Positions 11,601 through 63,718 of a DNA stretch of 64,000 bases are shown here, one piece after another. Within the stretch, counting starts at the first letter, position 1. Each line of letters opens with the position of its first letter. The notes below the pieces were generated by a model. It did not search any database, was not told where the DNA came from, and saw only the letters and a program-made list of their open reading frames with translations. Made by a program: the position numbers and the translations under genes. Source of the stretch: Yuukianura sp. NJ FZ-2021 (lineage: Eukaryota); the NCBI GenBank assembly GCA_046563655.1, contig CM102288.1, forward strand, positions 3,968,001 to 4,032,000, read 5' to 3'.

Positions 11601-13941
11601 TCCAAACACTGAACAACACGAAAAAACTAAACCAAAAAATCAATATTAAGAAAACCTGATTCAATTGAATTCTGATTTATTGATTCACCTTTCTCTTTCT
11701 CCTACTTTCTCAAAATTCAAGTCCTACCTAACACATCAATGTCCCAACATACAGCATACGCAACAGAAACAACATACGTTAACCTAACAAATACTTAAAA
11801 ACAACATAACCTACCACTTTACTCCACTTTCGCCTATGTCATTTCATTTCGAATGAGATGTAATTCAAAAACAGTTTCTAAAACTTCCAAAGTTTAAACT
11901 TTGCCTCAACTTCTATTTCCCAAAGAAAGTTCTAATTTTCTCCGATGAATGAAATGCAAAGAAAAAGCAAAGAGAAAGGCACCGACTCCCTCCGTTAAGC
12001 CTTTGCATTGATTCATTCGAAATTCGATATTCCAGAATTCGCGAGAAGGCCATTCAAAGTCAAGGTTTTTCCAAATAAATTCCCAACCTCTCTCTCTTTT
12101 CGCAAATTGATCCAATTCTCAGCTCTCATCTTATTACAATTGGCAATTCCATTAGCCTTTAGTAGCCCTGCTAGCTTCAAAGTCCCTAGCCCGTATGCAA
12201 TCTAATTAATTGGACCTTCGCAAAGTTTTCGTACAAAAAATTGAGTACTAAACTTTTGTAACTGAGAAGGAAGCACTTTTCAACAGACTTTATGTCAAAT
12301 TGACAAAATTCCAAAAATTTTGTCAAGAACCAAAAACTTCAAAAAGTTTCATTTCAAGTTAAATTCGACAATATAGTTGTACTGGTACTAGTTTTTAGAG
12401 AGCAAAAAACTAACATCAAAGGATATTGTAGAGTGACCTTGAACAAAAAGCTTCTTTTTTTTTATAGTCGCCTTTCTCCTAGGGGAAAGTAAACTTTTTG
12501 TTCCGTACTGACTCACCTATCGACAAAAATGAGAGAGAGAAAAAATCTCTTCTCCAATTTCGATAGCAAGACGAATTAAAAAGGAAAGTCCAAAAAACTT
12601 CAACAAAAATCCATAAAATTCAAAATTTTCGGTTCTTTAGTAGCTTTACGCAAAGATTTATGGTTTGTTGACCTTTCCCAATCCATTGTGCAGATTTTAA
12701 GCGTTGCAATTTCCGCTCTTTTTCATTTCAAATGTCAATTTAGCCAACTTTCTCCACTTTCTCCCTTTGCTTAATTTTCTCTCCTTTGTTCCTGCAACAA
12801 AGTGCTTCCTCTCCACAGAGAAAGCGACCGCGGCACACTTTGCAAAAAAATTGCAACTTGAAATTTTGAAAATGTCAGCCCACATTACATTTTCGATTTA
12901 GTCAGAACCATGCTCTACACACATGCAAAAGGAGTGAAAAAAAGAGGCAACTTTGCGCCAAATTTTTGGTCCTATATTCAATGTCACGTCACCTTTACCG
13001 ATGAGGACCGTGTGTCGTTTTTCAAAATTTGGCACGCTTTTTCGAAATCTTGCGTCATCATGCGTATGTATTTTTTAATTTTGAAGTTTGAAAAAAAGTG
13101 GTGAGTAAGTCTATTTCAAAAAATCTAGACCTGAACTTGGTACTAATGGATTTAAGCATGAGACAGGACCAGGATTCGAATAAGGTAGAACAAATTTCAA
13201 GTGCCAAAAATTTGTACTGACGTCAAACTTTCTTTAAAAAATTGACACTCTAAAAAAAGTTCAAAGTTACACAAATCACTTTATGAGAAAAAGAAAAACA
13301 TTCAAAATTAAATCACTCGTGTCAAAAAACAAGAATTTAGAACTTGGCTCTTTTTGAATTAAAATCCAACAACATCCGTTTTCTCCCTCTTACTCTAAAA
13401 ATCCCAAAAACAAATTTCAAGGTTGACTTTTTAAAAATTGACAAAATTTCGTAACACTGACTCAACGTCCAAATTTTGGAAGTATTTTGCTAAAATTAGC
13501 TTTCCGATTTGAAATTCATAGCAGAGTTGCGTTATGTGAATCCGTTAAATAAGTAAAAATTCACTTTTGGTTACGACTTGACAAAGTGACTGCATACGAT
13601 CTGAATAATCTTACATTTTCATTTTATGACATAAAGTTATCAAAAGTATCACTCTGACCTGTGACCTTTGACCCGTGACCTTTACACTAAAAATAAATAA
13701 AAATGTGGAGCTTACCTGTGAACTTGGAGTGAACAACTCGATGGGAAGCACTGGTGAGTTCCTGTTTGAGTGCGGAAGCTTTTGAAATAGATGGCGGAGT
13801 GTTGGAAGTAGCCAGTACAGGGCGTGACGATGCTGGACCAGCAGCAGTACTGCCAGTAGTTACTCCCTTCGTGACAGTCGCTGTGGTCGTAGTTGACCCA
13901 GCAGAAGTTTCTGGAGCCTCCGGAATAGCAACCAACATCAT
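2613..13941 (-). CDS. HDAC4: Class IIa histone deacetylase (HDAC4/5/7/9-like), 5' part; gene continues beyond the window start
   Basis: Exons 13941-13716 (MMLVAIPEAP...SKFT, phase 1), 2953-2787 (EIREDG...SSFQQQLLQ) and 2720-2613 (LKQEQELQHQLLLQRYQAQRQQLAQAHEKQLQQRLK) all have GT/AG ends and compatible phases. The last two exons match the glutamine-rich N-terminal helix of class IIa HDACs. The catalytic domain is not in the window, and linking exon 1 across the 10.8 kb intron is inferred from phase. Confidence 0.75.
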
Positions 13942-16027
13942 TCAAAACGGCCTAATTTCGATTCAGGTTCCTAACGATTTTTGGCAAAATTCAAAAATCG
14001 ATTCTTCCTTCTCGGTTCTTCTGGAGCTGAAAAACCAAAAAAGAAAGAAATGGTTACAACCGCATGGTGTTTGGCATTTTCTAAAAAAAATCACTTTTAG
14101 TTTAAAATTTTGAAAAGGCTGCACAAATGACCGGTGGCGGAAGTGGATTGGTGGATTGTGTTCTGGTAAACCCCAATTTTCTGTAAATAGAACTCTTTTA
14201 AACAGGTTTATTTTGGTGGAAAACCACCGAAAAATATAAATAATTTTTTTCAAAATTTCCTAAGAAAAACTAAATTTGAAAATTAAGCTTTTTGGGTAGT
14301 CAGTCACAGGCTAAAGTCAAAAGTAGACCTTTGACCTCAACCTGAAATGACCAGCTAAACAAAAGACCAATTTTCAAAAAGTTCAAAATTTGATCTTTTT
14401 GCACAAATTTTCGTAGTTTAAGCTGCGTATGTACGCACCCAACTAAACTGAACTTTTGAAATGGTGGTGCTCTAGTTTAAAATTAGCCGGGTTATTAAAA
14501 TTCTATTTCTGCCATCCATTGTTGCTTTTCAATAATGAAACGTGGCACTACCTTCAAAATTCTCAAAATCTAACGTCAAAAGTCCATTGTTATTCTGAGA
14601 AGTTTAAAATTTTAATTGTTCTTCAATTGCAGCGTTAATTGAAGTACAAATTGTTCCACCATAAGGTCAATAAATTGACTTCAATTGGTCCAATTCAACT
14701 GAAAGTTTACAAATTTTGTAACAGAAATGCACAAATTTTGAAAAACACAAAACGAAGCCAACCGCAAAACTTCGAAGGACAACTAACCTAACACAACTTA
14801 ACCCAATTTAAAGCCAAACTCACAAAAAATTGGAGCATTTAAAAACCAAAATTTGAAAACTTGCGATTTGAAAAGTTCTACTGTTCAAAATTGCTTACCA
14901 ATTCCAGTTTCAAAGTTGACGTTGTTCCGAAGTGGGAGTTGACCTTGGCATGATGCTTTTCTTTATCCACATTTCTAACACATTAGCACTTTTTAACGTG
15001 ACCTTTGACCCTGCTGAGTACACTATGTCCAGTATGTCCAGTCGTTGTTAGACTCTTCGCTGGAACCGCGTTTCAATCATCTCTCTTCAAGGTCTGGAGA
15101 GTGTCTGACAGCAGTCGTCTCTCCGCACTCTTTGCTTTATAAAAACCGAAAACCCCGAAATTCGGAGTTTTCTCTCCGACTCGGCAACAGCGTCGAACTG
15201 CTGCTGGAGAAAAGGTGAGCTTACACTTTCTCCTGGTCCAATTTACTCTTGGATTAGGCCGTAGAGTGCTCCAGTATATGTGAAGAACGAGGCTCACAGG
15301 GGCTGGAAATCGCTGAAAAGGAGCTGGAACTTTCCTAGAAATTTCCTAGACTCTGAGGAGTCCGTTGTCATGGTCACCATCTAATGAACACTCTTGTATT
15401 TTTCATCTTCTCAGGTTCCAGGTCAACTGTTTCTTGAATCCAGACTCAAGCAGCAGTTCAATTATCAACCACATCAGTGAACTGCCTCCACAAATGAGCC
15501 AAAACGACGAAAAATTATTGAGAAAAACGAAAATTATTGCCAAAAACAAAAACAAAATGACACTCTCATGAACTTACACAAATGGTGACTGGTGACCTCG
15601 ACGTGACCTCTGAACCTCTTCCTAGTTGCTGCAATTAAAAAGAAAAGAGATCAGACTAGGTCCATACTTTCACTATTTTTTTTCCAACAACAGAAATTAC
15701 GAAAATACGGGGGAAATAATTATTTTGCACAATTTCTTTTGTCTTTTGCACAATTTTGTCATAAAAAGTAAAAAGGAAGAAAGAAAATTTTCGAAAAATT
15801 TGACCAAAAAAGAGTTTTTTTTATGGGATCAGAAAAATTGTGCGTCCAATTTGAAATTTTCAAAAAAAAATGGTTTTTGGATCATTTTGCGTTGATAGTG
15901 TGAGAATGAGTTTGAAATGGGTTGAGACAACAAGTCAAAAAAAATTTCATTGGAACTGGGAAGATTCGTGTTCAAAAGTCTGTTGTCACAAATTTTGAGA
16001 GAAAACGAATGTTGATTGTTCAATCGC

Positions 16028-24298: not shown

Positions 24299-27200
24299 AT
24301 GCTCAAAAACATCAAAATGCCGCTTCCACTTACGCTCAACTACAATTTCAAACGGTAAGTGCAATTTTTTAGTTAATTAGTTAATTGACTTTAGATTTTT
24401 CTTAATTGTGGGAAAACTGAGATTTTTATGGAGTTTTATTCCTCTTTTTATAGTTTTGTTTGATGTGCTAAGTAAATTTTTTATTTGCTAGAGATTCTCT
24501 GATTTCTCTCAAATTACAACTTCAATTGTGAATTTTTAAATTTTTTTTTTGTGAATTTTGAAACTTTTTTTCAATTTTGATTTTGTTTTTGAATTTTAGT
24601 GACAGTACTGGTACGCACAGTACAGGTACGACGACTACTGGATCTGGATCGAGTGGTAGTGGACAGCAGTCGCCAGCATTTTCTCAGGTAAGTGATTTTT
24701 TGTAATCAAATTTTGAAAAAAGTGCCTCCTACTTTTCAAAATCTTAAATTCCACTTAACATTGTTGGCATTCTGAGCATGTCATAAAGTCAAGAGTGATT
24801 GTCATGTCAAATAACTCACAGATCATTGACAAATTCCAGAAGGATGAAGGATCCCTTGGAAGTTCTGGATAAGGGCCCTTCGATTTTGATTTCTCACAGA
24901 AGTTGAAGGGCCCTCCATTGTTTGATTTGAAATGTTTCATTTCCTCTGTATTGTGTTACATAAGCACAACAGTTGTGGCCAACTGGAGGTAGGCAGTTGG
25001 TTTTACACTTGGAGGGAGTAACTATGGATTAAGTAACCACTTGGTAGTAGTTGTTGCGCAACGATTCAAAAGAGTCCACCGGAAGTTCCTCATTTTTTAG
25101 TCAGTTTCCCTTCAAAACACACAACAACTTTGAAATGTTGAACTTCATTTTGAAAAAATACTTTTGTTACGTTTCATGTTATGGACTTACAAGGGCAGTC
25201 AATGAAAAAACTAAAAAATGTTCATGATTTCATCGTTTACATCATCATCTGCATTACAATTACTTCAGACTTCTTTTGTTTTTAACTTTTGCTAATTTTC
25301 AGTTTCACTTTTTCACTAAAATGCTGTAATTATAAAAATTTAGCAAATTGGAATTCATTTAAGTTTCAAGTGTGACGCTTGCTTTGAAGCTGAACTTTAC
25401 CGATTGCAATTCAAGTGAAGTCGCAATTTCCAAACAGGTTGTGGCAATCATCATCTTTTGTATCACTTTGACTTCAAGTGTGATGATGAGACAATCTTCC
25501 AATTTTTTTTATCTCGCAAATTCCTTGGCCAAACTTGATCCAAGTCGGCATTTTTGTTTTTGAAAAATTAGGAAACGACATTTTTTGAAAAGATTTGAGA
25601 TATGAAGATTAAACCAGTTTCTGCCTTGCAGCCAGGAAGTGGATAATTAACTGGTGGTTTTAGCCGCACACCTTTTAATTGCGGTTGCTGGCTCGTGGCT
25701 TCTCGGCTTCAACCTAACAAAAAAACTAACTTAATAACTTCAATTATTAATTAAAGTTAGGTTTTTAGAGTTGTTAAGGTGGTAAAATTCGAGCGGAAAT
25801 GAGGTACTAAGGTGAAACGAGAGTGACGGAATGCCAACATTTTGAAAAAAAGTTTGTGAAGCGGAATAATTTTCGGTTAGCTTCAAAATCAAGTAGCATG
25901 GAAAAACAGGAGTCGCAGGAATATAAAATTTCATGGGTCCTTATGCCCGGGAGCCCTTAAGCTTCTGCTTTTTGAAAAAAGTCGACTTCCGTAAGCCCTG
26001 TGTTAAACTTTTTGAAATTTGAGTATCACCGGATATCCTTCCGGTAAATTCCATTGACTGTTCTTAACTTTTAGAACTAGCGGAGGTACTTTGTGCAAAT
26101 TGGAATTTGCACAAACACAAAGTAAGAACATTTGCAATAATTTGCAAATAAAAATTAGCATAGTGAATGGCTTTGGCAACTCCCTTCCTGGCAGAACTTT
26201 GGAGTTCGCGGAAGGTGAAGATGAGATCATGCGTGACATTCCTTAAGTTGAAGTGACAACAATGAATGGGAAGTTTAGGCACTTCTTGACATCTTTACAA
26301 CTTCGTTTTCAATTGTTAAAAAAACAAAGTTGCAAAAAAAAAGTTTTTTTTTAATTTTGAATTTCGTTTTTTGCAGACTCCGAGTGATGAATCCGCATCT
26401 GAACAAGTCATCATGGGTTCCCTCGTGTTCTGTATTCATCACAAAGATGGCTGTGTTTGGTCAGATGAACTCAGAAAGCTAAAGGTCAGTCAAGGTCAAG
26501 GTCATTCACCCCCGGGGTAAAGTCAGTTTTTCTAAAAACTTGTTCTAAATTTGTTCTAAAAACTTTCCAGGGTCATTTGAATACTTGCCGCTACGACTCA
26601 GTTTCGTGTCCGTCAACATGCGGTGCTCTGATTCCGCGTCTCCTATTGGAAGATCATCTCAAATTTACGTGCAACCTCAGAAGAACAAGCTGCAAACACT
26701 GTTCCAAGATATTTACGGGGGAGGAGCTTGAGGTAAATTTACGATTTACGGATTTACGACTGATTCTGATTTGTAAATTTTTAAATCCTTTGACTTTGAT
26801 TTAGAACCACCATGGAAGTTGCGGGTGGGAACCGATTTTTTGTGAAAACAAGTGCGGAAACAGAGTTCAGCGAAGGAATGTCAAGCAGCATATGACCTCG
26901 GAGTGTCCAAAAAGACTCGTCAAATGTCCAAGTTGTCGCAAAGAGTTTCCGTCTGATACGTTACAGGCACATACGACGAGATGTGCGCGTGCGCCGGTCA
27001 ACTGCGACCGTTGCGGTGCATCTTCTATTCCGCGGGAAGAGATGGAAGGCCACCTCAAGGACAGATGCTTGGAAATGGTCTGTCCATGTCCATTTAAAGA
27101 CGCTGGATGCAAGTTCAGGGTAAGTTGAAAGGTCAAAGGTCAAAAAATGAAGGTCAAAGGTCAAACTTTTTTTGGTCATTGTCAGGGTCAAAAACGTTCA

Positions 27201-41984: not shown

Positions 41985-46853
<4,869 letters not shown>

Positions 46854-47446: not shown

Positions 47447-48479
47447 ATGTCCCCATTTCGTGAAATTTTGGAGGAAGAATTTGACAGGCTTGAAAATATG
47501 CTGGAACGACGGTTACCACAATCCAGCCGCGTAAGTTCAAATTTGAATTTACGTTTGGTTTAATTTTAGATTATAAATTGTTCCAATTTATCTTCAGGTT
47601 TTCAATATTTTGAGAATCAAAAGGCTCAACTGTCTTCCTTCAAAACTGAAAACGAAGTTTTTCGGTTTTACTCAAAACGGGTTTTCCGACATGTCGTTCG
47701 TTTTGTCCATGCAATATTTTGAGGTATTAAAAAAAAAAAAATAACAATTTTGTGAAACAGGTGAAATGGCATTGTCATTTTGAATATTTTTTGTTCAGAA
47801 TTTCGAAGGTGGTTTCTACATCGTCTTTTCAGCGTTCGAAGAAGCAAGCGTTACGCCAGCACTTCTGGATGGACTGGAATCTTTTTTAGATTGGAACCAA
47901 ACGATGCGCTTAGATTTGCCAGAAAATCAGCTTCTGATTGACTTTTTCAAAAGAATGGAACAGAAAAACAGCACTGGTCCAGTGAAACCAGTTCTAAGCA
48001 TCCACGAATCCTATGGTTTCATCATGAACCTCAACGAAACGAACATTGTGCCGACCGCCGAAACAGTACCGGTTGGGATTCGAACCGGATCGCTGGAAGT
48101 GAAACGCTTGGAGTCGGAGCAAGACATTACCGAAGTGGACTCCTATTGGATCAGAGAATCGAAGTTACGGGAAACCGTTGCCGTTTCGATTTCGTCTCTG
48201 CCGTCAACTGGTGTATACCACAAGGGAAATCTGGTCAGCTTCACTCTAACGGCATTTCATGGCTGTGTCAATGCTCTGTTTACGCATGATGACTATCGGG
48301 GTCAAGGATTGGGTCAATGGGTCACAAGAGTCACGGCTCAAGGTCAACTTAAGTTAGGACTTATACCTAGTGCAAGGTCACTGCGACACAATGTCACTGC
48401 TCATAGGGTGCTGGAGAAAGCTGGACTTGCCAAAACACACAAGACAGTATGGATTGACTATGTTGTTGCACAACCTTAA
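47447..48479 (+). CDS. GNAT-family acyltransferase (glycine N-acyltransferase-like/FR47-like C-terminus), copy 1 (~296 aa)
   Basis: Exons 47447-47530, 47598-47723, 47799-48479. Acyl-CoA-binding motif A (ALFTHDDYRGQGLG) and NVTAHRVLEKAGL. Confidence 0.82.
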
Positions 48480-48656
48480 TAAAAATTTGTGCAATTTTGG
48501 AAATTCTGACATATTGGCAATTTTAAGATTCCAAACTGTATTTTTTGCTTTTTAGTATTCGTTAATGTTGGCTATCGATAGTTTTTGGTACAATTTTTCT
48601 TGAAGGCTTGAAGATTTTGAAACTTATTAAAATTCATGACTTTAGAGTTGACCCTG

Positions 48657-48916
48657 TTAGGTCTGAAGGAACTGCTGACTTTGGAAGTTCGGAAAATTTG
48701 GTTGACCTTGAAAGGTCTGCGCATAATACTGACTTTGGAAGGATTGAGAATACTGCTGACCTTGAAAACTCTGAAAATACTGTTGACCTTGCAAGGTCTG
48801 CTGACCGTGGAAGTATTGAGGATACTGCTGACTTTGATAAGTTTGGGCATACTGCTGACCTTGATATGTTTGAGCGAAGTGTTGGAAGGTCTGAGGACAC
48901 GGCTGACCTTGACCCA
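48657..48916 (-). pseudogene. 5'-truncated duplicate of the last exon of the neighbouring Q-rich gene
   Basis: Encodes LGQGQPCPQTFQ...QQYPQYFHGQQTLQGQQY... matching 50397-50683, but is cut at the duplication junction (~48917) and lacks the original acceptor and upstream exons. Confidence 0.75.
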
Positions 48917-49203
48917 GAAATGCATCACAGAATGAGTTCAATGTGATTTGCCGGTCTGACAGAAAGGATCTCACAATTCAAATTCACCACTTCTGCTGGT
49001 TTCGTTATCAATTAAATGTGTCACTATTGGAAAAAAAAGAAAAGAATGAGCTTTTCATCACTTAACTTGGACGATTTAGTGGTCTTGGAAAGCTCGTGCA
49101 TGAAAAGTTGTCTTTTCCACAGATAAGATTGGAGGTCAAGTGTAAAAAGCTCGAGATCCTGAATGTCAGAAGTTTAGTTGTGCAATTTTGAAGTTTCGAA
49201 AAA

Positions 49204-50230
49204 ATGTCACCATTTCGTGAAATTTTGGCGGAGGAATTTGACAGACTTGAAAATGTGCTGGAACAACGCTTGCCACAATCCAGCCGCGTAAGTTCAACTT
49301 TGAATTTACGTTTGATATAATTTTTAAATTGTTCCAATTGTTCTTCAGGTTTTCAATATTTTGAAGATCAAGAGGCTCAACTGTCTACCGTCAAAACTGA
49401 AAACGAAGTTTTTCGTTTTCGCTGAAAATGGGTTTTCCGACATGTCGTTCGTTTTGTCCATGCAATATTTTGAGGTATTCAAAAAAAATGACAACAATTT
49501 TGCGAAACAGGTGAAATAGTGAAACTGTCACTTTGAAACTGCTTTTTTTCAGAATTTGGAGGGCGGGAACTACATCGTCTTTTCAGCGTTCGAAGAGTCC
49601 AGCATTACGCCAGCACTTCTGGATGGGCTGGAGTCTTTTTTAGATTGGAACCAAACGTTTCGCATAGATTTGCCAGAAAATCAGCGTCTGATTGAATTTT
49701 TCAAAAGAATGGAGCAGAAAAACATCGTAGGTCCAGTGAAACCAGTTCTCAGCATCCACGAAGCCTACGGTTTCATGATGAACCGGAACGAAACGAACAT
49801 TGCACCTACTGAAACGGTACCTATCGGGATTCGAACCGGAACGCTGGAAATGAAACGCTTGGAGTCGGAACAGGATATTACCGAAGTAGACTCGAATTGG
49901 ATCAGACCATGGAAGTCACGGGAAGCCGTTGCCGTTTCGGTTTCGTTTCTGCCGTCAGCTGGTGTGTACCACAAAGGAAATCTGGTCAGCTTCATTCTAA
50001 CGGCAATTCATGGCAGTGTCAATGCTCTGTTTACGCATGACGAATATCGAGGTCAAGGATTGGGTCAATATGTCACGAGGGTCACGGCTCAAGATCAACT
50101 TAAGTTAGGACTTATACCTAGTGCAAGGGCCCTGCGACACAATGTCACTGCTCATAAGGTGCTCGAAAGAGCTGGACTTGCCAAAACGCACAAGACGGTA
50201 TTGATTGAATATGTTGTTGCACAACCTTAA
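49204..50230 (+). CDS. GNAT-family acyltransferase, copy 2 (~295 aa)
   Basis: Exons 49204-49287, 49349-49474, 49553-50230, with the same structure as copy 1. Motif ALFTHDEYRGQGLG. One codon shorter (IAPT-ET vs IVPTAET). Confidence 0.82.
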
Positions 50231-50394
50231 TAAAAATTTGATTAATTTTCAAATTCTGACATAATTTTATTGGCAATTTTAAGATTTGACAGTATTTTTT
50301 GCTTTTTTAGTGTTCGTTAATGTTGGCTATCGATAGTTTTTGGTAGAATTTTTGTTAAAGCCTTGAAGATTTTGAAATTTTTGAAAAATCGTGA

Positions 50395-50683
50395 CTTTAG
50401 AGTTGACCTTGGTAGGTCTGATGATACTGTTGACTTTCGAAGGCCTGAAAATTTGGTTGACCTTGAAAGGTCTGCGCATAATACTGACTTTGGAAGTATT
50501 GAGGATACTGCGGACCTTGAAAGGTTTGATAATACTGTTGACCTTGCAAGGTCTGCTGAGCATAGTACTGACCGTGGAAGTATTGTGGATAGTGCTGACC
50601 TTGATAAAGTTGTTGTTGACCTTGATAGGTTTGAGCATAGTGTTGACCTTGGAAGGTCTGCGGACACGGTTGACCTTGACCCA
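50395..50683. repeat. Degenerate ~21-27 bp coding minisatellite (ACTG(C/T)TGACCTTG(G/A)AAGGT-like units)
   Basis: Roughly a dozen TGACCTTG/TGACTTT-anchored units. A second array lies at 48637-48916. Confidence 0.8.
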
Positions 50684-52767
50684 AGGTCACTGGCGCCGTG
50701 CGTCGAAAGAGCCGTTGACAGAAGCTGTTTGGAGTCTGCTGTGAGAAATTGCGTACGTCCTTGATGTGTCGACTCCAAACGTCGTGTGTCAACGGCCCGT
50801 AGATTCTTTCTGGTGCGCTTTTTGCGTCTTTGAGTTGATACATCCTGAAATGTCCAAAAATATATAAATTATATAAAACAATAATTAAATACAGTTAATT
50901 ATAATTAATCATATTTTACTAGCTCTTACACTCCGTTCACCACGATGGTTCTCGGGTAAATGTTTTTCCCGTAGGAAAGGAAATTTCCGAACTTGACTCT
51001 GATCGGACAATTTTAAAATATCAATTAACACAACATTAACTTTAATTAATTTCTTTAATTTTAATTAATTAATTAAAGTTGTTAATTTTACGCGAAATTT
51101 TTGAGACTTCCAAGACCAACTCCCAAGACCGGAACTTTTGCAAACGTTTTTTTCCAACCGTAAGACGAACTGCTTGGTTTGAAGAGTCCGAAATTCTTGA
51201 ACGAACTTTTTCAAAAGAAAAATTCAAAATTCAAAAAATGTTTTTTAAAAAAAATCTTTTAAATCACCTAACCTGGTATTGATTGAGCTGAAGCACATCG
51301 GAGGAGGTCGGTAGTCTTCACAGAAATGTGTTTCCGATTCGGTTCGGATCGGCGAAACTCTGACCGGTGTGTTTCGGTATGTTCCGGTGAACGGGTAACG
51401 GCGATCCTCAAAGTCAATAGTCAAGCCATCAATTTCATTGGTCCATTCAGCTTTTTGTCGTGCAGCAGCATTAGCTCGGGCAACTTTTTCAAGCTACACC
51501 AATCAAAATTTGGCATTCCTTTGGCGCCAAAATTCGTATACCAATAATCTTTTAGCGCCAATTTTGAAATTTATACTTACGTATTCGATTGCACTGTTCT
51601 CAGTGATGCCCGGATACAGATCACCAAAGGACACTGGAATGCTGGCTTTCACTTCTAAACTGAACTTGCGCAGTTCTTCCGTTTGCTTGTACCGTTCCAC
51701 TCTCTTTTCCAGTTCCGTTTTCTCCAGCATTTTGTGCTTGAGCAGTTGCTGGACTGTGCGGACTTGCTGGTCAGCTTCAATCAACGACGTTTCTGCTTTC
51801 TTGTACGCTGCTTTTCCAGCCTCGAGTGCCTTCAGTCGCTTTTCCTTTGATTTTAAACAACTTTGGATCTTCTGCTCAACTTTCTTGAGTTGCCGACGTT
51901 TGATTTCCGTTTTCTTTCGGGCCGCGGTGACCTCAGCGGTGAAAGCAATTCGATTTTGACGTAAAGTGATCACGCGGTCTGTGAGATACTTGATGTCTTT
52001 GTCCAGAACTTCTTTTTCTTCTAGTGCACTTTTCAATTCAAACGAAATCTTATGCCAATCACAGTTCGGCACACAAGCTGAATCCAAATCACCGCCATCT
52101 TGAAAAGTTTTGGCGCCAACTTCTGGGTTTTCAACATCCTTGGCCTCAGCTTGATTCGAACTCACGTCCGGTCCACCTTGGGCAACTGGAATCTCGCCAG
52201 TGTTATCTCCTGCTCCAGCGTCATTTGTGATGGTGTCACCTAATTTAAAATTCGACTTGAAAGTTTGAAAATTTCGAAAGCGTGTTTTTTGAAAACCGCG
52301 GTGATACCTTCTTCGCCCTCCTGTACGCTTTGGCATGTGCATTGACTTTGTTCCAGTTTTGATTTGAGCGCTGCTTCTTCTTCGACTGTTTGCTTCAAGT
52401 CGATTGTTTTTTCTTGAACAGCGTCACTTAAAAATCCAATCCTCTCTTCAGTTGCAACTGTGAGACGATTGTTCCAGCGTTTCTGGACTTTGAGAAGGCC
52501 ATCAATGTCTTTTCGCAGCGATTCTGCCACCAAGCGATGCTCTTCCAGCGTTTCGTCAGCCTCGTCTACTTCCTGTTCCAGGTCTTTCAAGGCTTCATAC
52601 CGCTCAACTCGAAGGCGTCCGGCCTTCAAGCGATTGGATTGAGCGAGGCCCACGTTGCGCTTGAGCACTTCGATTGACTCCTTCACAACTTCCAGTTCCT
52701 GCATTGGAGTCCGTGGCAACAAGTTGGACATTGTGGACGACGGGCCAGGAACGGGGGATGACGCCAT
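50397..52767 (-). CDS. Unrecognised coiled-coil protein with C-terminal Q/Y/F/G-rich repeat (~656 aa, 6 exons in best model)
   Basis: Best model exons 52767-52308, 52239-51581, 51493-51273, 51205-51092, 50998-50930, 50844-50397 (1971 nt, frame-consistent). Two E/K/L/Q-rich heptad regions and a tail of QT(F/Y/L)QGQQY-type repeats. Exons 4-5 and the reading frame of the last exon are less certain. Confidence 0.65.
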
Positions 52768-54909: not shown

Positions 54910-57900
54910 ATGGACGATAAAGTGCCAGGTAAAAACAAATCTAGCGATTTCAATATGTTTTAATTCAGTTAAATAGGATAGTGGAGCCTATGATTTTAAC
55001 AGTTCTTAAAAATCTTCGGATTCATTCAAAATTTCAGTTGAAAAAAAAATCAAAAATTGAAAACCCATTTTTTCGACATTGCAGGACTGGGTACTGGAAG
55101 TATCCATCCCTTGTCATACGTAAACAGTGGTTTCGTGGGTGGTGACGATGACGAAGTAGGAAAGCGGAGAAAGTCCAACTACGAAATGTTTCCTCTGGCG
55201 TCACTCCACTCTGCCGATGGTAACCTACTTTCTCTTTTTAACAATGGTTGATTATGACATAAAAGTGAAAGTCAAAAGTTACATTAAGCACATCAATCCC
55301 TTTCATACTTTTCTTTGTACCCGACAAAGGTCAACTAGGTCATCACACAAAGTTTCACTTTGAAACTAGGTCAAATTAAACCCCCTTTCACCAAAAGTCT
55401 CTGCAAATGAAATTCTGGACACTTGAGTGATGGACGTAATAAAAACACGTCATAAAGTTAAGTCCAATTACGTGTCTCTGGAATTCCACTTACCGTCAGA
55501 AAACACATTTTTTAGCAAAATTGCAAATGCTGGCAAATATTTTGCGAAAAGATGACCTTGAATCTTGTTCTTTGTTCCGTTTTTAATAAAACAATGACGT
55601 CAAAGGCGGAAGACCATATTTCATATTTTATTGAAAAGGTTTCAAAATCGCCTACTTTCTGCTTTCTTCCCACACTGACCTTGGAGACAGTAGACAGTGA
55701 AGCCATTTTCCCAATTCCAAAAAGCGACAGTTCTTTCAAAATAGTTTTTGTAAAGGAAGTTCTATCATAAAGATGGTAGAGATTAGTAGATTTCATTTTG
55801 ACAAAGAAAAGAAACGAACTTTGTGCGCATGAGGAGTAATGGATCTTGCCTCTGCTTTCATTTTGTGCTTTCACCAAGAAAATTTCTAGAAGTTCAGATT
55901 CATAAGCGTCTTTCCCAAGAAACAACTCAAACACTCACGGAAATTCCCACACTTACATTACTTTCACAAAAAGAAAAACTTTTTTTTTCATCAAAATAAA
56001 ATTTAAAAAAAGAAAAAAATTTTCTTGAAAAATCCAAGAACCAGATTATTTAAACCTTCCAGCAAACGCTTATGTTGCTGCGCTTCCGCTGTTTGGAGAA
56101 AGTATAATGGACTTCCAATATAAATAGACACTAAAATTGTGTTAGCAAATTTTTTAGAGAGGTTATTTGTGTCCATGTTTGGATATGTGTCCATTTTTGG
56201 ACATTTTTGACATTTCTGGACATACGGAGAAAGTTGTTTTTGTGATTAGACCAAGGACAGACCAGGAGTAATAAAATGAAGACATAAAAAATCATTTTTT
56301 GCGACTTTCCCTGTTGGTTTTATCGGATTCCTTGGAACACCCGCCACTCCTGTGGTTGTCGTATTTGCCCAATTGGTTCGAGTGACTGAGAGTGTATGGG
56401 CTGTGTGCAAAAATTTATTTGGTCCCCTCCGTGACTATTTTTTGCACAACCAAGGTGGAATCCAATACACTTCCAATAACGTCTCATCTTATTCCCCGAA
56501 TTTCCAGACAGGAACTCCGAAAACCCCACGAATCCCTCCGAACTTTCCTCTGCCCCTGGATCCATTGAGCACCATATGCCAAAATATGGACACAGTTAAC
56601 ATAGCCTCCCACCCTACTCTCACTTCTGCTAAAAATTTTGGCACAAAGTACTATCGCTGCTGCTACTCGCGTCAACAGCGTCTTCAGTCGATTTTAGTCT
56701 TTTGAGCAAAGCAGTAGTCTCTCTGTGCTGCGGAGTTTTTACAAAAACGTGGTTCAAATTGAAATCTTGCCAAGAAGGTGCTTGTTGCTTAAAAAGCAAG
56801 TGAAAGTTGGGTTTCCGGAAATTGCAAAAGTCCAAAATTTTGAAAACTGAAATTGAATTGTTTTGAGTTTAAATTGATTTTTGTTCTGCATGAGTTATTT
56901 GGTTGAATTGATTTTTTGGAAACTTTGGAGAAATTCAAAATCCTGGATCCAAAATGTCACTTTTACAACCCAATTGGGAGACTGTTGAAAGTTGTACTCT
57001 GAGTAGTAGTGAAGAAACAATAAGTTATTCCTACGATATACCCATTGACCCACCAGCCGATGACCCCGTGACCCCTGACTTTACTTCACTTGACCTCTTG
57101 CTCAAAGAAAGCGTCATTTTGCCTTCAAATGACGTCGTGACCTCTCGTCTCTTTGAGCAAGTCCGCTACGACTGGCTGCTGCCAAAACCAGGAGGGTGAC
57201 AACTCCAACGACTGTTGACCTTCCACAGGAGTCGTTTGCCCCAGTTGACCTTTGACCCCGCCAACTCTTTCCAAAAATTAACCTATCCCGGTGACCGTTC
57301 AAATTTTAGAAGTTGGGGTAACTCGAGAAAAGTGAAGTTAACTTTAGAGAATTACAGCCACTTAAGATAGCATTTGCCCACTTTTTAGAAAACTTTGACC
57401 TTTGACCCCTTAAATGTCTCCAACTGCAAACCCAATGCTTCTGTTGAGTGACACTGGAAGGCCTCTGGAGGAGGTGAAAGTGGTTGGCTTCGGAAGTGAC
57501 GTGATAGGAATTGACATAGAGGAGGTGGGAAGTGATGCTGGCAGTACTTCTCACGAGCACTTCCAAGTATCGTACTCTGCGTCTGTCCGAGACAGAGTTC
57601 GCAGAATGCGCATGACTAAGAGTGACATTGGGCTTATGACGAGTCTGCGTCTCAAAGTGGCTGATTGGTGGGCCAGTGTCTTTCGCAGAACTGGCTACGA
57701 CCAACGACGAACCGACACGAACATTCGGTTCGCCGATCAAGAAATTGAACTCATCCGAGGTAACATCAATTATTCCGGTTTCAAAATTTCAAAAATGAAA
57801 TGTGCAATTGACGAGAATGATGACAATAAACTGAAATTGAGACCAAACGGTTCCACTCATCTGGGAAAATTTTGAGTGGCGGTTAAGCCTAAGTATTTGT

Positions 57901-60900
57901 GTTACTCTATGATTAATTCTTGATTTGTTAATTACAGGAGATAAGCATGGTGCCTCAAATGGCTCTTCTGGACAAGACAAGGACCGTGTCAAGGGCCCCC
58001 AGGAATCTGTGCCCTTTGACCCTACGAAGGAGTACTTAAACTTAGGTGAAGAAGATCAGATGGAAATCGAAGGCTACGAGAGGTCAACTTTCAAAACGCT
58101 GCTGACCTGGACATTCATACTGCTCACTGTTGGACTCCTGCGACTCGTTTTTCATTGGTGGCCACAACTCATGCTCTACTCAACGCATCGTCCAACGTCC
58201 ATTTCCAAAGCTGACACCATCTTGGTCATCGTAAGTCACAATGTTTGACATTTCTCAAAAAAGAAAAAAAAGAAGCTTTTTGTCTTGTTTTGTTTGATTT
58301 TAAGTCACAATTTTTGACATTTCTCAAACAGTGAAGCTCTTTGTCTTGTTTTGTTTGACTTTTTTTGCGCAACAGGAATCGATTTGTCCGATATTTGTCA
58401 TTTTGTTCCACTTTTTGAAACATTTTTTGTTGCTTCATCGCTTTTTGCGAAATCGTGTGTTTTATTGATCAATCGATTGACGACAGGAGTGGCGAATTCT
58501 GTGAATTCAACGGATAAAGTGTATGGAAAACAGTTGAAACTTGAGAAACAACTTGACACTTGAAAAAGTGCTGACTCAATTTTCCTAATGGGCACTTCTG
58601 GAACCCAGCATCTCATGGACATAGGACAGAGTGACAGAGTTGTCGCATCACTTGTCACTCTCTTTTGTGACAAAGGGCACGAGCCATCGTTAAACTTCGC
58701 AAAAAAATTGCAATGTTTTATGTTTGTGTCCAACCGTGACAATTTGCGCAATTCATTGCAAAATTTATGACTTGGTTTTATTTGAATTTTGTTTTGTTTC
58801 TAGGAACACTACAAACAGAAATACAAAAGATACTATGTCAAGTCAGTCTTCATTCTCTCAAAAGATTTGTTCAAGTAAGTTTGCAAAAAAAAAAAATTAC
58901 AAAAATTTATTGCAAAATTTTATTAGTATTTGACTCATGCCATTAATTAAGTTATCCATCAAGGGGCATTTATGGTAGCAACACAAATCTTACCCGGAAA
59001 GCATTTCCGTTTCCAAATTTTATTGAAATTGAGTTTGTCAATTTGCGGTTTTGCAAATTGGAAATTCATTGCCAATTGCAAACTCGTAAGCTTTTTGTAA
59101 CAAGTTTTTAGTCTGGGCGAATCCGGCACGATTTGGTTTTAATCAAAAAGTCGAATTGGCGGTTTTTTGACCGCAACTGACAGGGGCTTTGAAGAATCAA
59201 AGTTTAATTTGACGCGCCAAAGGGATCAAGGGCACAGGGAAAGAGCACTGATAAAAAGTTAGTCATGTGCAAAAATTTGCAAAGTGTTGCGAATTTGCAA
59301 AAGTGTCTGATTCATTGAACTGCAAGAACTGCGACTTCTCCGGTATCAAATGGCAAATATTTGCCACCTTTTGCAAATTCACAGCAGTCGTGAAGGAAAT
59401 TAAACTACAGAATTGAATCATGAGATGAAAAATGAAAATATTGCTGACGCCAGATCCACTTGACTCTTTGAATAAGAATCAAAATGGAATCAATTTGAGA
59501 TTTGAGTCACGTTGTAACGATCTTTTAATTCTGGTCGTAAATTCAATTGAAAAAGTTCGAATTTCAAAGGAACGCGTGGCGACACTTCATTTTGTATGTG
59601 ACATTTGTCTGTCCTTAGTTCCAGTTTCAATTGCATGAACTTTAAACTTTTCCAGAGAAAGTATTGAAACAATAAAGTTACGGTTCTGAAATCGCAAAAG
59701 TATTTCAAATTCATAACTACTTTCTACTAACAAAAAACAAAAAGAAAATTTTTCAAAATTTTGAAAAGTTTGCAAAAATCGTACAACTTCCTAATTGAAT
59801 TCAACAGAAATTCAATTCCTATTCTTGGCCACCCGGGTTTTCACCCGGAAAACTCTGGAAAGACAAAAGTTAGAATGTCAAAAAATGTTTTCTTGGAAAA
59901 GTTGCAGGAATTGTGCTTTCCCTTGCCTAATTTAACTTTTTCAAAAAAAAATTGTTTTTCATGTTTGACAAATTAAAGTTTTAATTGATTTTTGAAATTA
60001 ATGGATTATAGTTAAAGTGGCTTTGAGTTAAAGTGAGGAGCTTAGGCTTGTGACGTTGAGTGATGTTTTCCTGGAAAGTTTCAAATTAAAAGAAGCGGAA
60101 ACAGCGCAGAAGCGTCTAAACGTCGCTGCAGCCTCGAAATTCGCAATTTATGGGTTCGATAGTGCGAATTGACACTAACGATCATTTGAAAGTGTCCCGC
60201 TTTTTAAGTGCTTTGCACTTTAGAATCTCCAGTAGCTTCAAAGTGTCAAATGACATCAATTTCAGCTCAATATCGCTGAATCGCTCCATCCAAACGCTTC
60301 CTTTGTCAACGCAAAAATGGAAATTGCCCGCCATAAAAGTTGACCTCATTTGACCTGACAAGAAGAAACCACGTTTGCAAAAACCTTTTACAAAGAAAAT
60401 GTTCTAAAATTTTTGGTTTTTTGAAAATTTGTAGCAGTCCAAATTTGTTTCCAGCGACTGGGAATTCAGCAGATGAGAAATCTGCTGAAATAAAGTCTCG
60501 TCAGGAACAACTGGAAAACACACTCCGTTCCATTCCCACTCCAAAACTGGTCATTCCGAATTCAGATGGAACAATTACTGGTAAAATTCATTTTTTGAAA
60601 AGCGTTTTTGAAAATTGAAATTTCCAAAATTTTGGTTACAGAAACTGACACTATTCGTTTCTTCAACTGCAAAAAGCTAAAGTACATTTGGAACGAAGAG
60701 AGAGGAACGTTCGCGAAACTTCCAGGATTCGATCACGCAATCACTTCCAACCTACACAAAGCCCAGGGATTGTCGACCTTCGAACAATGTCAAAGGTCAG
60801 TGACTTAACAAACCTAATCTTAGCCTAACGTTAACCTAATGTATAAGAATCTAACACTAACCTAACATTTTTCGAAAGGTTGCTCATCTACGGTAACAAT

Positions 60901-63718
60901 GAAATCGTCGTAGAAGTTCAGAGTATCGTAAAACTCCTGTTTCTGGAAGTGCTCAACCCATTTTACGTCTTCCAAATATTTTCTGTCACTTTGTGGTACT
61001 CTGACAACTACGTGGCCTTTGCCACGGCCATTGTCATCATGTCCATGTTCGGTATCACCTCAACCATCATTCAAACCAGACAGGTAAGGTCAATGACCTT
61101 TGACCTCTGAGAGCAATGACCTTTGACCTCTGACCAGATTTTAATAGCTGTGAGGTTACGTTTTCAGAATCAGAAGAAGTTGAAGACGACCGTACAATCA
61201 GCTGATATCGTGACAGTTCTACGCGGGAGTGGCGACTTTGAGTCCATTCCGACTGAGCAGTTGGTTCCTGGTGACCTCATTGCAATTCCTGCGCATGGCT
61301 GTACCATGCAATGTGACGCTGCTCTACTCGTAGGGTCATGCATCGTCAACGAAAGCATGCTCACTGGTTAGCAATTCATGTCACGTTACAAACTTTTCCA
61401 CAAAGTTTTCAAGAAAGTTCTGTTTTCATGAATTTTGATTTCGAATTTTGAACACTTTAGGTGAAAGTGTGCCGGTGACCAAATCAGCTCTGCCGAATCG
61501 GAGTGACGTTCAATACGACACAAAGGAACATGCGCGACACACTCTCTTTTGTGGAACGCATATCATGCAGACTAGGTACTACGGAAATGAAAAAGTACTG
61601 GCAGTAGTACTCCGAACAGGTACTTTCCAAAATTAAAAAAAAAGTTAGAATTTTTGAAATTTCGACCTTTGACCTCTAGGGTTCTTGACCTCGAAGGGCA
61701 GTTTGGTTCGATCCATCATGTACCCGCCTCCAGTTGACTACAAATTTGAAAACGATTCGTACAAGTTTGTGGCTGCTCTTGCCGCTTGTGCCGGAATTGG
61801 ATTCATTTTCAGTGTTTTCATGAAGGTGAGAAATGTTTTTCAAAATTTTGAACATCTTTTTCTGAAATTTGGATTTTGCAGATTCGGTTTGGCGAATCCG
61901 TTCGGAATATCATCGTGGACTCTCTTGATTTGATTACAATCGTCGTCCCACCAGCTCTGCCGGCAGCTATGACCGTCGGCCGCTACTATGCCCAAAGACG
62001 CCTTCAGAAACAGGATGTATACTGCATCAGTCCAAGAGCCATCAACGTCTCGGGGTCAATCGACTGCGTATGCTTTGACAAGGTAAGGCTAACCAACATT
62101 CTAAGTCAAATGACCTCCATTTGAGCTCAAACTGAACAAAATGAGGTCATATGACAAGCTTAAAGAAACGGCGCCAGAGTCCAATTACTATTTCCTGGAA
62201 GTGGAAGAGCAAAATTAATTGGAAGAATTCTCGCAAAACACGTTTTTTTTTTCAATCAGACTTTCACTTTTGGGAAGAAAACGAAAGAGACTCTTCAAAG
62301 TCAATTCGAACACAAGTGGAACACGAAAGTGGAGAAAGTTCGGGAAAAATATAATGTATTTTTTGTTCTTTTTTTTTTGAAAGCGACCTCCTTTGATGGG
62401 AAAAATGTGTTTTGTTGGAAAAGTGAAAGTTGTCGAGGCAAATTATTTGTGTTGTCAATCAAAACCGAAATTGGAGAGCTGATACGACCGTCGTAACTGC
62501 GCAAAGGAAGTAATTTGAGCTAACTGCGCAGCTCGTCATTTTTAACAAAAACTAATTGAAGCTGGTGCTGGAGAAAGTGGAAAGCCGCAAGCCGTTTTCA
62601 GTTTCAATTTGAATCAACACGCCTTCATTAAGCCCAAAACTTTCACTTTTACGCCAAGCTTCAAAGAAAACGTTACGTCAAGCGTCAAACAAAAACCTTG
62701 AGAAAAGCTTTATGTTCTGTTCAAACAAGCATGTCTCGTCTCTTTTGAAAAATATGAAAAAAACATATTTTTTGAAAGTGTTTGAATGGCGAGGCGTTTT
62801 TCGAATTTGAAAAATTTTCCACTTCAGTTTCAATTTAGAAAGGAGTTTGAACGCAGCAGGGACTGGAGGATGAAAAACAAGTTTGAAAAGGATTTGGTTT
62901 TTGTTACAAGTTTTGAGTAACAATGGGATTACACTTTGTCATTTCAATTTGACACTGTCAAGTTCCATGATTAAGCCCCCTTGTCATATGGAAAACTGCG
63001 TTTTTAAAAAAAGTTTTTTGAAAATGGGGGTTCAAGGTCAGAGATAGAGAAAGTTCAAGGTCAAAGGTCATCAAACTCTTTCAAATCCTTCGTTTCTGCC
63101 AAATATTTGCCTTTCAGTTGAATAAGTCCTGAAATGGGATTTCACTTTCACTTTGTGTTTCACAAAAATAAGAGAAAGTGAGCGGAACAGGATATTCTCC
63201 TTATCTCTTTCTGTTTGAACAGCGTTGTTTGAACAAAACCCAAATTTGAAAATACTTAACTTTTTTTCAAAAAGTGAAATTCTGTACTTTGTGTTCTGCT
63301 TTTAGACTGGGACTTTGACAGAAGAGGGTTTGGATTTGTGGGGAGTTGTTCCACTTGAACAAACTTTGAACAGCAGAGAAAGTTCTACTAAGAAACCGAT
63401 TTTTGCTGAGCCAATCAGAGACGTTTCTAGCCTCACTTCAAGGTCACTCATGGTAGGCATGGCTGCGTGTCACTCTTTGACTAGAATCGAAGGTGACCTG
63501 ATCGGTGACCCTCTTGACCTTAAGGTAAGACTTGCTTAGAATTCAAACTTTTGGAGGTCGTTGACCTTAAAACTTGTCACTTTCAGATGTTTGAGTGGGT
63601 TGGTTGGACTCTGGAAGAACCGGGAGTGGCTGACAGTGAAAAGTTCGATATCCTCGCACCCACAGTTGTACGACCGAAGAGAGAAGTAAATGACAACATA
63701 CCGGAAGGAAACAAACAA
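54910..63718 (+). CDS. ATP13A3: P5B-type ATPase (ATP13A2-5 family, putative polyamine transporter), 5' part; continues beyond the window end
   Basis: Exons 54910-54928, 55085-55219, 57938-58230, 58804-58874, 60435-60580, 60642-60795, 60879-61083, 61168-61366, 61461-61619, 61680-61825, 61882-62082, 63306-63524, 63587-63718. Motifs [54 protein letters not shown] (P5B), CFDK|TGTLT, GDPLDLKMF. The exact paralog name is uncertain. Confidence 0.92.
57414..57759 (+). CDS. Probable alternative first coding exon of the P5B ATPase
   Basis: ATG-initiated, 115 codons + 1 nt, ending G|gtaaca in phase 1. This matches the phase-1 acceptor at 57938. Composition is coding-like within an otherwise AT-rich intron. 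Confidence 0.55.
58232..58360. repeat. Two-copy ~65 bp intronic tandem duplication starting at a 5' splice site
   Basis: TAAGTCACAAT(G/T)TTTGACATTTCTCAAA...GAAGCT(T/C)TTTGTCTTGTTTTGTTTGA occurs at 58232 and 58301. Confidence 0.75.
61087..61099. promoter_or_regulatory. Perfect IR1 palindrome AGGTCAATGACCT (nuclear-receptor/EcRE-type), followed by TGACCT direct repeats
   Basis: Exact AGGTCA-n-TGACCT directly after the donor at 61084, then TGACCTTTGACCTCTGA twice. Function not shown. Confidence 0.35.

Follow-up and report, generated by a model that had tools for sequence, protein, structure and literature searches.

We analysed 64,000 nucleotides of the genome of Yuukianura sp. NJ FZ-2021 (GenBank assembly GCA_046563655.1, contig CM102288.1, positions 3,968,001 to 4,032,000). 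We call this whole stretch the window, and all coordinates below are counted from its first letter. Our subject is a short repeated word, AGGTCA (or TGACCT on the other strand), which often occurs as the heptamer AAGGTCA, is often arranged in tandem, and often lies beside splice sites. We describe a copy as sense if the transcript reads AGGUCA and as antisense if it reads UGACCU. An initial annotation of the window had proposed that this word might be a lineage-specific splicing code. We mapped the genes from Pfam matches on open reading frames and from protein-to-genome alignments. The longest exon of the myosin gene is nearest to unconventional myosin ID of the springtails Folsomia candida (72%) and Allacma fusca (71%), and the kinase exon is nearest to Orchesella dallaii (83%). 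The window contains these genes:

1 to 15.6 kb, minus strand: HDAC4-like gene, whose identity is weak (one Pfam match, HDAC4_Gln, E = 7.4e-4, below the curated cut-off)
about 18.4 to 19 kb, minus strand: uridine kinase, from the gene map
26.4 to 28.2 kb, plus strand: TRAF zinc-finger gene, from the gene map and an alignment to P0383
29.9 to 30.7 kb, plus strand: DUF92 gene (Pfam DUF92)
39568 to 31160, minus strand: Myo1D, with 11 introns from spliced alignment to two springtail-like Myo1D proteins
42.0 to 46.8 kb, plus strand: TNK/ACK kinase, with 9 supported introns
within the units at 47784 to 48980 and 49523 to 50900, plus strand: two FR47 acetyltransferase genes (Pfam)
about 58.0 kb to the end of the window, plus strand: P5-type ATPase, with 8 introns backed by at least two of three alignments

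The homology-supported set comprises 34 introns, 26 of which are short (at most 150 nucleotides each, and 2,048 nucleotides in total), and 35 donors. All of the splice junctions that were quoted in the initial annotation were recovered by protein-to-genome alignment: in Myo1D, the donors at 34573 and 34896, the acceptors at 35286 and 34768, and the donor at 33732 that had been named as an exception; in the TRAF gene, the donors at 26485 and 27120; and in the ATPase, the donor at 61084 and the acceptor at 61679. The homologues of the P5-type ATPase are distant, and their alignments conflict at 58.2 to 60.6 kb and at 62.1 to 63.3 kb, so introns in those regions were excluded from our counts. Our sample of introns is biased, as three of the four modelled genes were preselected by having been flagged beforehand. 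Ab initio scoring of introns recovers 19 of the 26 known short introns at a threshold of 45, along with many false introns within known exons. We used it only as a rough denominator, and it suggests about 8 plausible extra short introns.

The word is far too common to be due to chance. AGGTCA and TGACCT have 128 exact matches in the window, versus 29.19 ± 5.41 in 100 dinucleotide-preserving shuffles, none of which reached 128 (the maximum was 46). Enrichment over composition-matched shuffles is present within the window, and the motif is found at every one of the roughly 20 places where tandem units had been listed. Relative to base composition, AGGTCA is the second most enriched hexamer (4.95-fold), behind poly-A only, and AAGGTCA is 9.4-fold enriched. 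If RGGTCA is allowed, then the count rises to 166 units, which group into 103 clusters; at least two units are present in 34 of these. The units run head to tail: neighbours that are at most 30 nucleotides apart share a strand in 36 pairs and differ in strand in 5. If two coding repeats (described below) are left aside, the same-strand spacings number 32; 11 of these are 7 nucleotides and 3 are 6 nucleotides, while about half are neither. Tandem Repeats Finder identifies period-7 arrays at 13655, 27128, 34557, 34842, 35298, 57393, and 61117, and the density of arrays is roughly one per 3 kb. Thirteen of the 128 matches fall within the two coding tandem repeats, which have a period of 27 nucleotides and lie on the minus strand, where CAAGGTCAG encodes Q-G-Q within a protein that is rich in Q, G, and Y. 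We consider these to be separate from the intron pattern.

The arrays were said to be frequent in short introns, and we found 12.9 units per kb there as opposed to 1.5-2.0 elsewhere in the window (1.97 in coding exons, 1.76 in long introns, and 1.53 in the rest), or about seven times the density of any other compartment. More precisely, the 26 short introns contain 26 exact units, while 0.60 are predicted from the introns' own composition, which is a 43-fold excess. At least one unit is present in 9 of the 26 and at least two units are present in 6. Given that 8.4% of 79-nucleotide background segments contain a unit, P = 1.8e-4 for 9 of 26 short introns; if the denominator is widened to about 35 short introns, then P(at least 9) = 0.002. 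The control word TTCAAAA is only about twofold denser in short introns. Arrays are also found in sequence that resembles untranslated regions (UTRs), in long introns, and in unassigned DNA, and units are also found in coding exons.

The strongest result of our analysis is the register of the units on donors. GTAAGGTCA occurs three times in the window, each time as a supported donor (34896, 34573, and 61084), while the base frequencies of the other donors predict about 0.005 of these in 35 (P about 2e-8). In three other introns, the donor lies within a unit as AG/GTCA, where the slash marks the splice junction (TRAF 26485, ATPase 60796, and DUF92 30467). It had been remarked that AG/GTCA resembles a donor, and at these three sites it is the predicted donor itself. 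In all, a unit is fused to 6 of the 35 supported donors, in one of two fixed registers, and for all six the GT junction is backed by the alignment of a homologue or by the continuity of a Pfam domain. Also, 13 of 13 sense units in short introns start within the first 40 nucleotides. This register on GT donors is not explained if the units are dispersed sites for transcription factors. The units at or near donors are:

34867 to 34896, minus strand: 5' end of Myo1D intron 5 (34896 to 34768, 129 nucleotides), GTAAGGTCAAGGTCA and then a third sense unit, with units at +3, +9, and +24
34558 to 34573, minus strand: donor of Myo1D intron 6 (61 nucleotides), GTAAGGTCAAAGGTCA, from spliced alignment
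61087 to 61129, plus strand: P5-type ATPase intron 61084 to 61167 (84 nucleotides), GTAAGGTCA and then four antisense units in a 23-nucleotide duplication
at 61087, plus strand: perfect inverted pair in the same intron, AGGTCAATGACCT
26483 to 26504, plus strand: TRAF intron A (26485 to 26570), donor AAAG/GTCAGT inside the first unit and then AAGGTCAAGGTCA
60794 to 60799, plus strand: P5-type ATPase donor (intron 60796 to 60878), AAAG/GTCAGT, from two of three homologue alignments
30465 to 30470, plus strand: DUF92 donor (intron 30467 to 30539), CTCAG/GTCACC, with Pfam DUF92 matched to position 211 before the intron and from 218 to 250 after it (E = 0.022)
27130 to 27163, plus strand: TRAF intron B (27120 to 27185, 66 nucleotides), GTAAGT and then 2+2 sense units that occupy most of the intron

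As a side note, GTCA donors (with C at +3) account for 3 of the 35 supported donors, which is unusually high for animals. A third AAGGTCAGT, at 55674 to 55682, follows a minus-strand open frame and may be another GTCA donor (55680).

At the other end of the intron, antisense units end 4 to 45 nucleotides before the acceptor in six introns, and mainly at 12 to 45 nucleotides. TGACCT arrays had been reported to precede the acceptors at 35286, 34768, and 61679, and we found antisense units 4 to 33 nucleotides from these. In ATPase intron 61084 (listed above), the distances are 45 and 38 nucleotides. The other five introns are:

35300 to 35319, plus strand: Myo1D intron 3 (70 nucleotides), three units that read as perfect TGACCTT in the RNA, 28, 21, and 14 nucleotides before the acceptor at 35286
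34780 to 34857, plus strand: 3' two thirds of Myo1D intron 5, four units that read as TGACCT in the RNA and end 84, 77, 33, and 12 nucleotides before the acceptor, within a 21-nucleotide repeat
33704 to 33732, plus strand: donor of Myo1D intron 8 (266 nucleotides), GTAAGTGACCTTGACCT and further on TGACCT; this intron also has one TGACCT 20 nucleotides before its acceptor at 33487
61663 to 61679, minus strand: 3' end of P5-type ATPase intron 61620 to 61679 (60 nucleotides), CGACCTTTGACCTCTAG running up to the junction, 4 nucleotides
63562 to 63567, minus strand: P5-type ATPase intron 63525 to 63586, a single TTGACCT, 19 nucleotides before the acceptor

The fit of TTGAC to the branch-point consensus, which had been pointed out before, is in line with the introns as a whole: when all 34 are taken together, those without a unit included, no yTnAy pentamer is commoner than TTGAC and TTGAT at 12 to 45 nucleotides upstream of the 3' splice site. 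Judging from the consensus, UUGACCU is a plausible branch site followed by pyrimidines.

The two orientations may also differ in where they lie. Within short introns, the ratio of units in the 5' half to units in the 3' half is 11:2 for sense units and 5:8 for antisense units (Fisher p = 0.041, with the caveat that units within an array are not independent). If each intron end is counted once, then the ratios are 9:2 versus 1:6 (p = 0.013). In the body of the HDAC4-like gene (1 to 15.6 kb), which has long introns, there are 16 sense units and 4 antisense units (p = 0.012 if units are counted and 0.12 if clusters are). We view the polarity of the motif at intron ends as no more than suggestive. 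One exception is the donor at 33732, where Myo1D intron 8 starts with GTAAGTGACCTTGACCT, that is, with antisense units.

Intron 8 also contains a tRNA-like piece of about 100 nucleotides (33517 to 33616, minus strand) that has a good A-box and B-box by eye. It is multi-copy, with a depth of 3468 in its bin versus about 300, and loose contig ends lie at 33517, 33547, 33595, and 33616. Neither ARAGORN nor Rfam made a call for this piece, which is probably a tRNA-derived repeat or pseudogene. Without an insert of about 100 nucleotides, intron 8 would be about 55-60 nucleotides long and its antisense units would be at most about 50 nucleotides from the acceptor, which is an ordinary distance.

To learn about the origin of the repeat, we placed contigs from four DNA runs on the window. 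At the array in TRAF intron B (27128 to 27165), the depth of contigs is about 28,000, compared to 200-400 nearby, and dozens of contigs have differing flanks, with an agreement to the flank consensus of only 0.36-0.42. When we compared the flanks of 19 arrays in the window with one another, there was no real match. We found no terminal inverted repeats around the arrays beyond the units themselves, and searches with Rfam and ARAGORN matched no family or tRNA. As the flanks are unrelated, both in the window and across dozens of other genomic copies, the arrays are very probably not a transposon in this genome, which was one of the origins to be checked.

There are also signs of instability. Contigs of the three runs X1, X3, and X5, which include a second organism label, have a shorter allele of Myo1D intron 5, a 44-nucleotide copy-number variant (34790 to 34835) at the level of the 21-nucleotide higher-order repeat. 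ATPase intron 61084 has a 23-nucleotide internal duplication. At TRAF intron B (CAGGGT) and ATPase intron 60796 (AAAGGT), a six-base direct repeat extends across both junctions and overlaps the AG/GT protosplice consensus; junction repeats of the AG/GT type are expected at any protosplice site. Separately, a metagenome scan for arrays of three units identified 122 loci (L001-L122) from other, more GC-rich organisms, and 69 of these loci belong to 13 repeat families that share flanks, the largest with 12 members (among them L022, L047, and L052). In other organisms, the AGGTCA word can ride on mobile elements.

It had also been suggested that pairing between the two orientations could bridge the ends of an intron, with the intron at 34768 to 34896 (Myo1D intron 5) as the example. 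Only 2 of the 9 short introns with the motif have both orientations, and 7 have one orientation. Among 16 introns that we folded and compared to shuffles, z was below -2.5 in two: ATPase 61084 (-2.65) and Myo1D intron 6 (-3.19). In Myo1D intron 5, the minimum-energy fold does pair the 5' units with the last antisense unit, but z is only -1.73, so of the two introns with both orientations that were to be folded, 61084 stands out and 34768 to 34896 does not. The other 13 introns show no excess stability (z from -1.96 to +1.37). Because so few motif-bearing introns have both orientations, we reject pairing between intron ends as a general mechanism. Separately, 34558 to 34571 (in the donor array of intron 6) and 34844 to 34857 (in the array in the middle of intron 5) are perfect 14-nucleotide complements on either side of a 194-nucleotide exon of Myo1D, and their pairing in the pre-mRNA could loop out this exon.

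The remaining arrays and groups of units are:

13655 to 13681, minus strand: HDAC4-like gene, sense units AAGGTCA CGGGTCA AAGGTCA CAGGTCA, 32 to 58 nucleotides past the donor at 13713
14999 to 15011, minus strand: apparent 5' UTR exon of the HDAC4-like gene (by eye only), GGGTCAAAGGTCA, sense
15593 to 15609, minus strand: 5' region of the HDAC4-like gene, AGGTCAcgtcgAGGTCA, sense, immediately upstream of GTAAGT
4121 to 4152, minus strand: long intron of the HDAC4-like gene, two sense units 26 nucleotides apart
5841 to 5854, minus strand: long intron of the HDAC4-like gene, AGGTCAtgAGGTCA (period 8), sense
36424 to 36436, minus strand: Myo1D intron 1 (3.5 kb), AGGTCAGAGGTCA, adjoining the start of a nested plus-strand gene with a thioredoxin domain
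57216 to 57408, minus strand: upstream of the coding start of the ATPase, TGACCT or TGACCC units on the plus strand
60341 to 60356, minus strand: poorly modelled ATPase intron, TGACCTcattTGACCT, about 80-95 nucleotides before a candidate acceptor
63035 to 63070, plus strand: long ATPase gap (62083 to 63305), three sense units

The first of these had been described as lying in an HDAC intron after 13716. The array is present and is sense, but it starts 32 nucleotides past the donor, and the identity of the gene is weak. The thioredoxin-domain gene (36427 to 37782, plus strand; Pfam E = 3.4e-15) is nested on the opposite strand within Myo1D intron 1.

We also noticed other repeats in the window. 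The word TTTTGAA or TTCAAAA is as over-represented as the AGGTCA motif (210 occurrences versus 22 expected, or 9.5-fold). It forms its own tandem arrays with a period of 10-11 nucleotides (for example, at 35051 to 35107, 36188 to 36244, and 31511 to 31550), it fills Myo1D intron 4, and it is found joined with AAGGTCA arrays in other contigs. In Myo1D intron 11, there is a 38-nucleotide inverted repeat (31550 to 31587 and 31746 to 31783), 82% complementary and 158 nucleotides apart, with a second pair inside it (31613 to 31638 and 31697 to 31722), and the whole resembles a small palindromic insert similar to a miniature inverted-repeat transposable element. Most of ATPase intron 60796 to 60878 (83 nucleotides) is a degenerate run of AACCT/TAACC, at 60811 to 60870, whose complement is TTAGG, the telomere repeat of arthropods. 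The coding repeats of period 27 belong to a tandemly duplicated two-gene unit (47784 to 48980 and 49523 to 50900), in which an open reading frame for an FR47-like acetyltransferase on the plus strand is followed by the Q/G/Y-rich protein on the minus strand. The Q/G/Y-rich proteins contain the 27-nucleotide repeats, for example ...YQGQQYAQTYQ..., and several frames are open on both strands.

We propose, with a probability of roughly 45%, that (A)AGGTCA is a dispersed and unstable heptamer repeat that is kept, and perhaps used, where each of its orientations mimics a splice signal. The heptamer would arise locally, by small duplications and by slippage (with periods of 7, 6, 21, and 23), and its arrays would have no recognisable transposon carrier. 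It would survive, and would probably accumulate, chiefly in short introns, owing to the likeness of each orientation to a splicing signal. In the sense orientation, AG/GUCA or GUAAGGUCA would lie on or just past the 5' splice site and would act as a real or pseudo donor with a weak match to the U1 consensus. In the antisense orientation, UUGACCU(U) would provide a yUnAy branch-site pentamer and then pyrimidines, 12-45 nucleotides before the 3' splice site. Since each orientation mimics a signal, compatibility would act as a filter on the orientation near each end of the intron, and the units may serve as auxiliary sequence for the splice site or the branch site. The mechanism would then be signal mimicry by a simple repeat, rather than a separate code or end-to-end pairing.

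Several observations weigh against this proposal. First, all of it rests on 35 introns of five genes in one window, and three of those genes were preselected. Second, TNK was not flagged beforehand, and its 9 introns contain no arrays, while its 6 short introns contain just one single unit; similarly, the roughly 8 further short introns from the rough ab initio scan contain no units. So the motif is not needed for splicing. Third, the polarity that had been described, with sense units after donors and antisense units before acceptors, reaches significance when each intron end is counted once, but not if we consider only arrays of at least two units (5:2 versus 1:4, p = 0.24). And 33732 is a genuine exception but not the only one. 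ATPase intron 61084 was described as having an AGGTCA array after the donor, but just one unit is sense and the next four, beside the donor and 38-68 nucleotides from the acceptor, are antisense. In TRAF intron B, the sense units run throughout, to within 22 nucleotides of the acceptor. Fourth, the arrays have only 2-4 units, which is short for growth by slippage. Fifth, the motif is also enriched in coding sequence, with 16 units versus 4.24 ± 1.9 in shuffles that preserve the protein and the codon usage (0 of 2000 reach 16), and the coding units are much denser in Myo1D (12 in 3,324 bases) than in TNK (2 in 3,141; p = 0.013). Pure slippage does not explain why one heptamer is enriched 4-5-fold in every compartment, nor why the density differs 6-fold between the exons of Myo1D and TNK.

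The introns of these two genes follow the same trend as their exons: Myo1D is rich in units and TNK is poor. Among sense-strand coding hexamers, AGGTCA ranks 5th and GGTCAA ranks 2nd of 4096 when compared to synonymous shuffles, and a few unrelated hexamers score alike. The coding enrichment and the gene-specific density go beyond slippage or splice mimicry alone, and they leave room for something that reads the motif, either on RNA, as an enhancer, or on DNA, as nuclear receptors would. A general splicing code is not established, as the motif is gene-specific and is also found in UTR-like, long-intron, and coding sequence.

The motif could have a more specific role in splicing. AAGGUCA and UUGACCU might be a lineage-specific, bipartite element for intron definition, in which the sense form, on the donor and directly past it, recruits U1 or a dedicated RNA-binding protein and the antisense form supplies the branch site and the pyrimidine tract, and the sense form might also act along long introns and exons. 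We consider this combination of claims to be unlikely but worth keeping in mind: if it is true, then in a quarter to a third of short introns both ends are supplied by one expandable repeat, which could also seed new introns. Similarly, there could be a dedicated splicing element of this lineage, with AAGGUCA as an intronic enhancer (and GGUCAA as an exonic one) that works via U1 or an RNA-binding protein, UUGACCU as a preferred branch site, and the two together defining short introns. The 43-fold excess in short introns, the fixed register on 6 of 35 donors, the ranks of AGGTCA and GGTCAA among coding hexamers, and the 16:4 sense bias in the body of the HDAC4-like gene would all fit. On balance we think that this is unlikely, given that a unit is present in only 9 of 26 short introns, with none as an array in the 9 TNK introns and none in the roughly 8 predicted introns; also, copy number differs between contigs, other coding hexamers reach similar z-scores, and no binding protein is known.

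At the other extreme, the motif might be a neutral simple repeat that is unrelated to splicing, and it might appear to hug splice sites because we have a small, partly preselected sample from a compact genome whose non-coding part is mostly intronic. This seems rather unlikely to us. It would account for the arrays in long introns, UTR-like sequence, and unassigned DNA, for the variation in copy number, and for the lack of clear polarity among arrays (p = 0.24), and three of the four modelled genes were indeed flagged beforehand. But it does not predict that short introns would be 7 times as dense in units as the window's long introns or its other DNA, that 3 of 3 occurrences of GTAAGGTCA would be donors, or that P(at least 9) would be 0.002 even with about 35 short introns.

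The word is also the exact half-site of nuclear receptors, and the units might be clusters of response elements that act at the DNA level and mark genes under the control of HNF4, USP, FTZ-F1, or similar receptors. The dominant spacing (11 of 32) is that of DR1, a direct repeat of half-sites with 1 intervening nucleotide; period 6 corresponds to DR0 (no intervening nucleotides), within which TCAAGGTCA occurs; and at 61087, AGGTCAATGACCT forms a perfect inverted pair. Among the matches listed in our literature search, the published uses of AGGTCAAAGGTCA are as receptor elements. The observed enrichment of the motif on both strands and in all compartments, including coding sequence, also speaks for this reading, as does the gene-specific density, with Myo1D rich in both exons and introns and TNK poor in both. 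What binding to DNA does not predict is the register on GT donors, or an orientation that depends on the transcribed strand and the end of the intron. Furthermore, one array per 3 kb plus dozens of near-identical copies is far denser than known hormone-response elements, and the strict head-to-tail order (36 versus 5) is what duplication would produce. We judge this explanation to be improbable.

It is quite improbable that the arrays are remnants of mobile or introner-like elements, in which case they would be the terminal or subterminal repeats of an element that brings its own splice sites. TRAF intron B and Myo1D intron 5 are almost entirely array, the latter with its sense and antisense units at opposite ends; there are six-base repeats at the junctions of TRAF intron B and ATPase intron 60796; and more than half of the metagenome array loci (69 of 122) are in families that share flanks. 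In this genome, though, neither the arrays of the window nor the other genomic copies share flanks, we found no terminal inverted repeats beyond the units themselves, and the junction repeats are of the kind that any protosplice site should have. Finally, pairing of AGGUCA with UGACCU across the ends of introns, as in the (AC)m-(GT)n introns of teleosts, is highly improbable: the folds of Myo1D intron 5 (z = -1.73), ATPase 61084 (-2.65), and Myo1D intron 6 (-3.19) are in its favour, but in intron 6 the donor itself would be hidden inside the stem, just 2 of 9 motif introns have both orientations, and 13 of 16 folded introns lack excess stability.

How does our preferred reading, a simple repeat that mimics splice signals, compare to known systems? 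Our literature search found no paper on AGGTCA arrays in introns and nothing on introners in springtails, and for introners in arthropods none of the titles listed was relevant. The passages we have from the Folsomia genome paper (PMC10087712) make no mention of such a repeat. Micro- and minisatellites are similar in having head-to-tail units, unrelated flanks, many loci, and perhaps variation in copy number. They differ in that our arrays have just 2-4 units, the heptamer is also enriched singly and in coding sequence, and there is a preference for short introns. The resemblance to nuclear-receptor elements was recognised from the start, and it is exact: AGGTCAAAGGTCA is the textbook DR1, the DR1, DR0, and IR1 elements (IR1 being an inverted repeat) are all built from AGGTCA half-sites, and the window has direct half-sites that are separated by 1 or 0 nucleotides (11 spacings of 7 and 3 spacings of 6, n = 32). 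Response elements do not share the donor register, the dependence on strand and intron end, or a density of about one array per 3 kb.

Two other systems are closer to splicing. Pseudo-5' splice sites and intronic decoys that bind U1, along with intronic enhancers made of G runs, are known; like the sense units, pseudo-5' splice sites and U1 decoys are repeated donor-like motifs directly downstream of real donors. Here, the reversed repeat is at the other end of the intron, and the binding of any factor is putative. Introners, reportedly treated by Gozashti and colleagues in 2022, are likewise repeated sequences that are common to introns at unrelated loci, and the repeat may supply the splice sites. 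In our window we detected no shared body of an element, no terminal repeats, and no clear target duplications, and the similarity is confined to the heptamer.

The heptamer pattern is not proven to be a new splicing code. If it holds genome-wide, then it would be a natural system for studying how repeats that arise cheaply by mutation come to serve as splice signals, and it would bear on how very short introns are defined and on whether repeats of this kind can create or move splice sites. Otherwise, it is a species-specific repeat, which would still be relevant to gene prediction (because of GTCA donors) and to motif scans (because of false nuclear-receptor sites).

The closest published analogue that we know of is the (AC)m-(GT)n class of introns in teleosts (Lin et al. 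2016, Genome Res, PMC4691745). There, too, simple repeats lie at intron boundaries with a 5'/3' polarity, in a lineage-specific way and in a sizeable share of genes. In the teleost introns, the complementary repeats co-occur within an intron and take part in splicing via base pairing. In contrast, 7 of our 9 motif introns have a single orientation, and the heptamer units themselves resemble donor or branch signals. If our reading is correct, then the pattern in Yuukianura would be an arthropod counterpart with a different logic, in which one heptamer mimics a donor or a branch site depending on its orientation.

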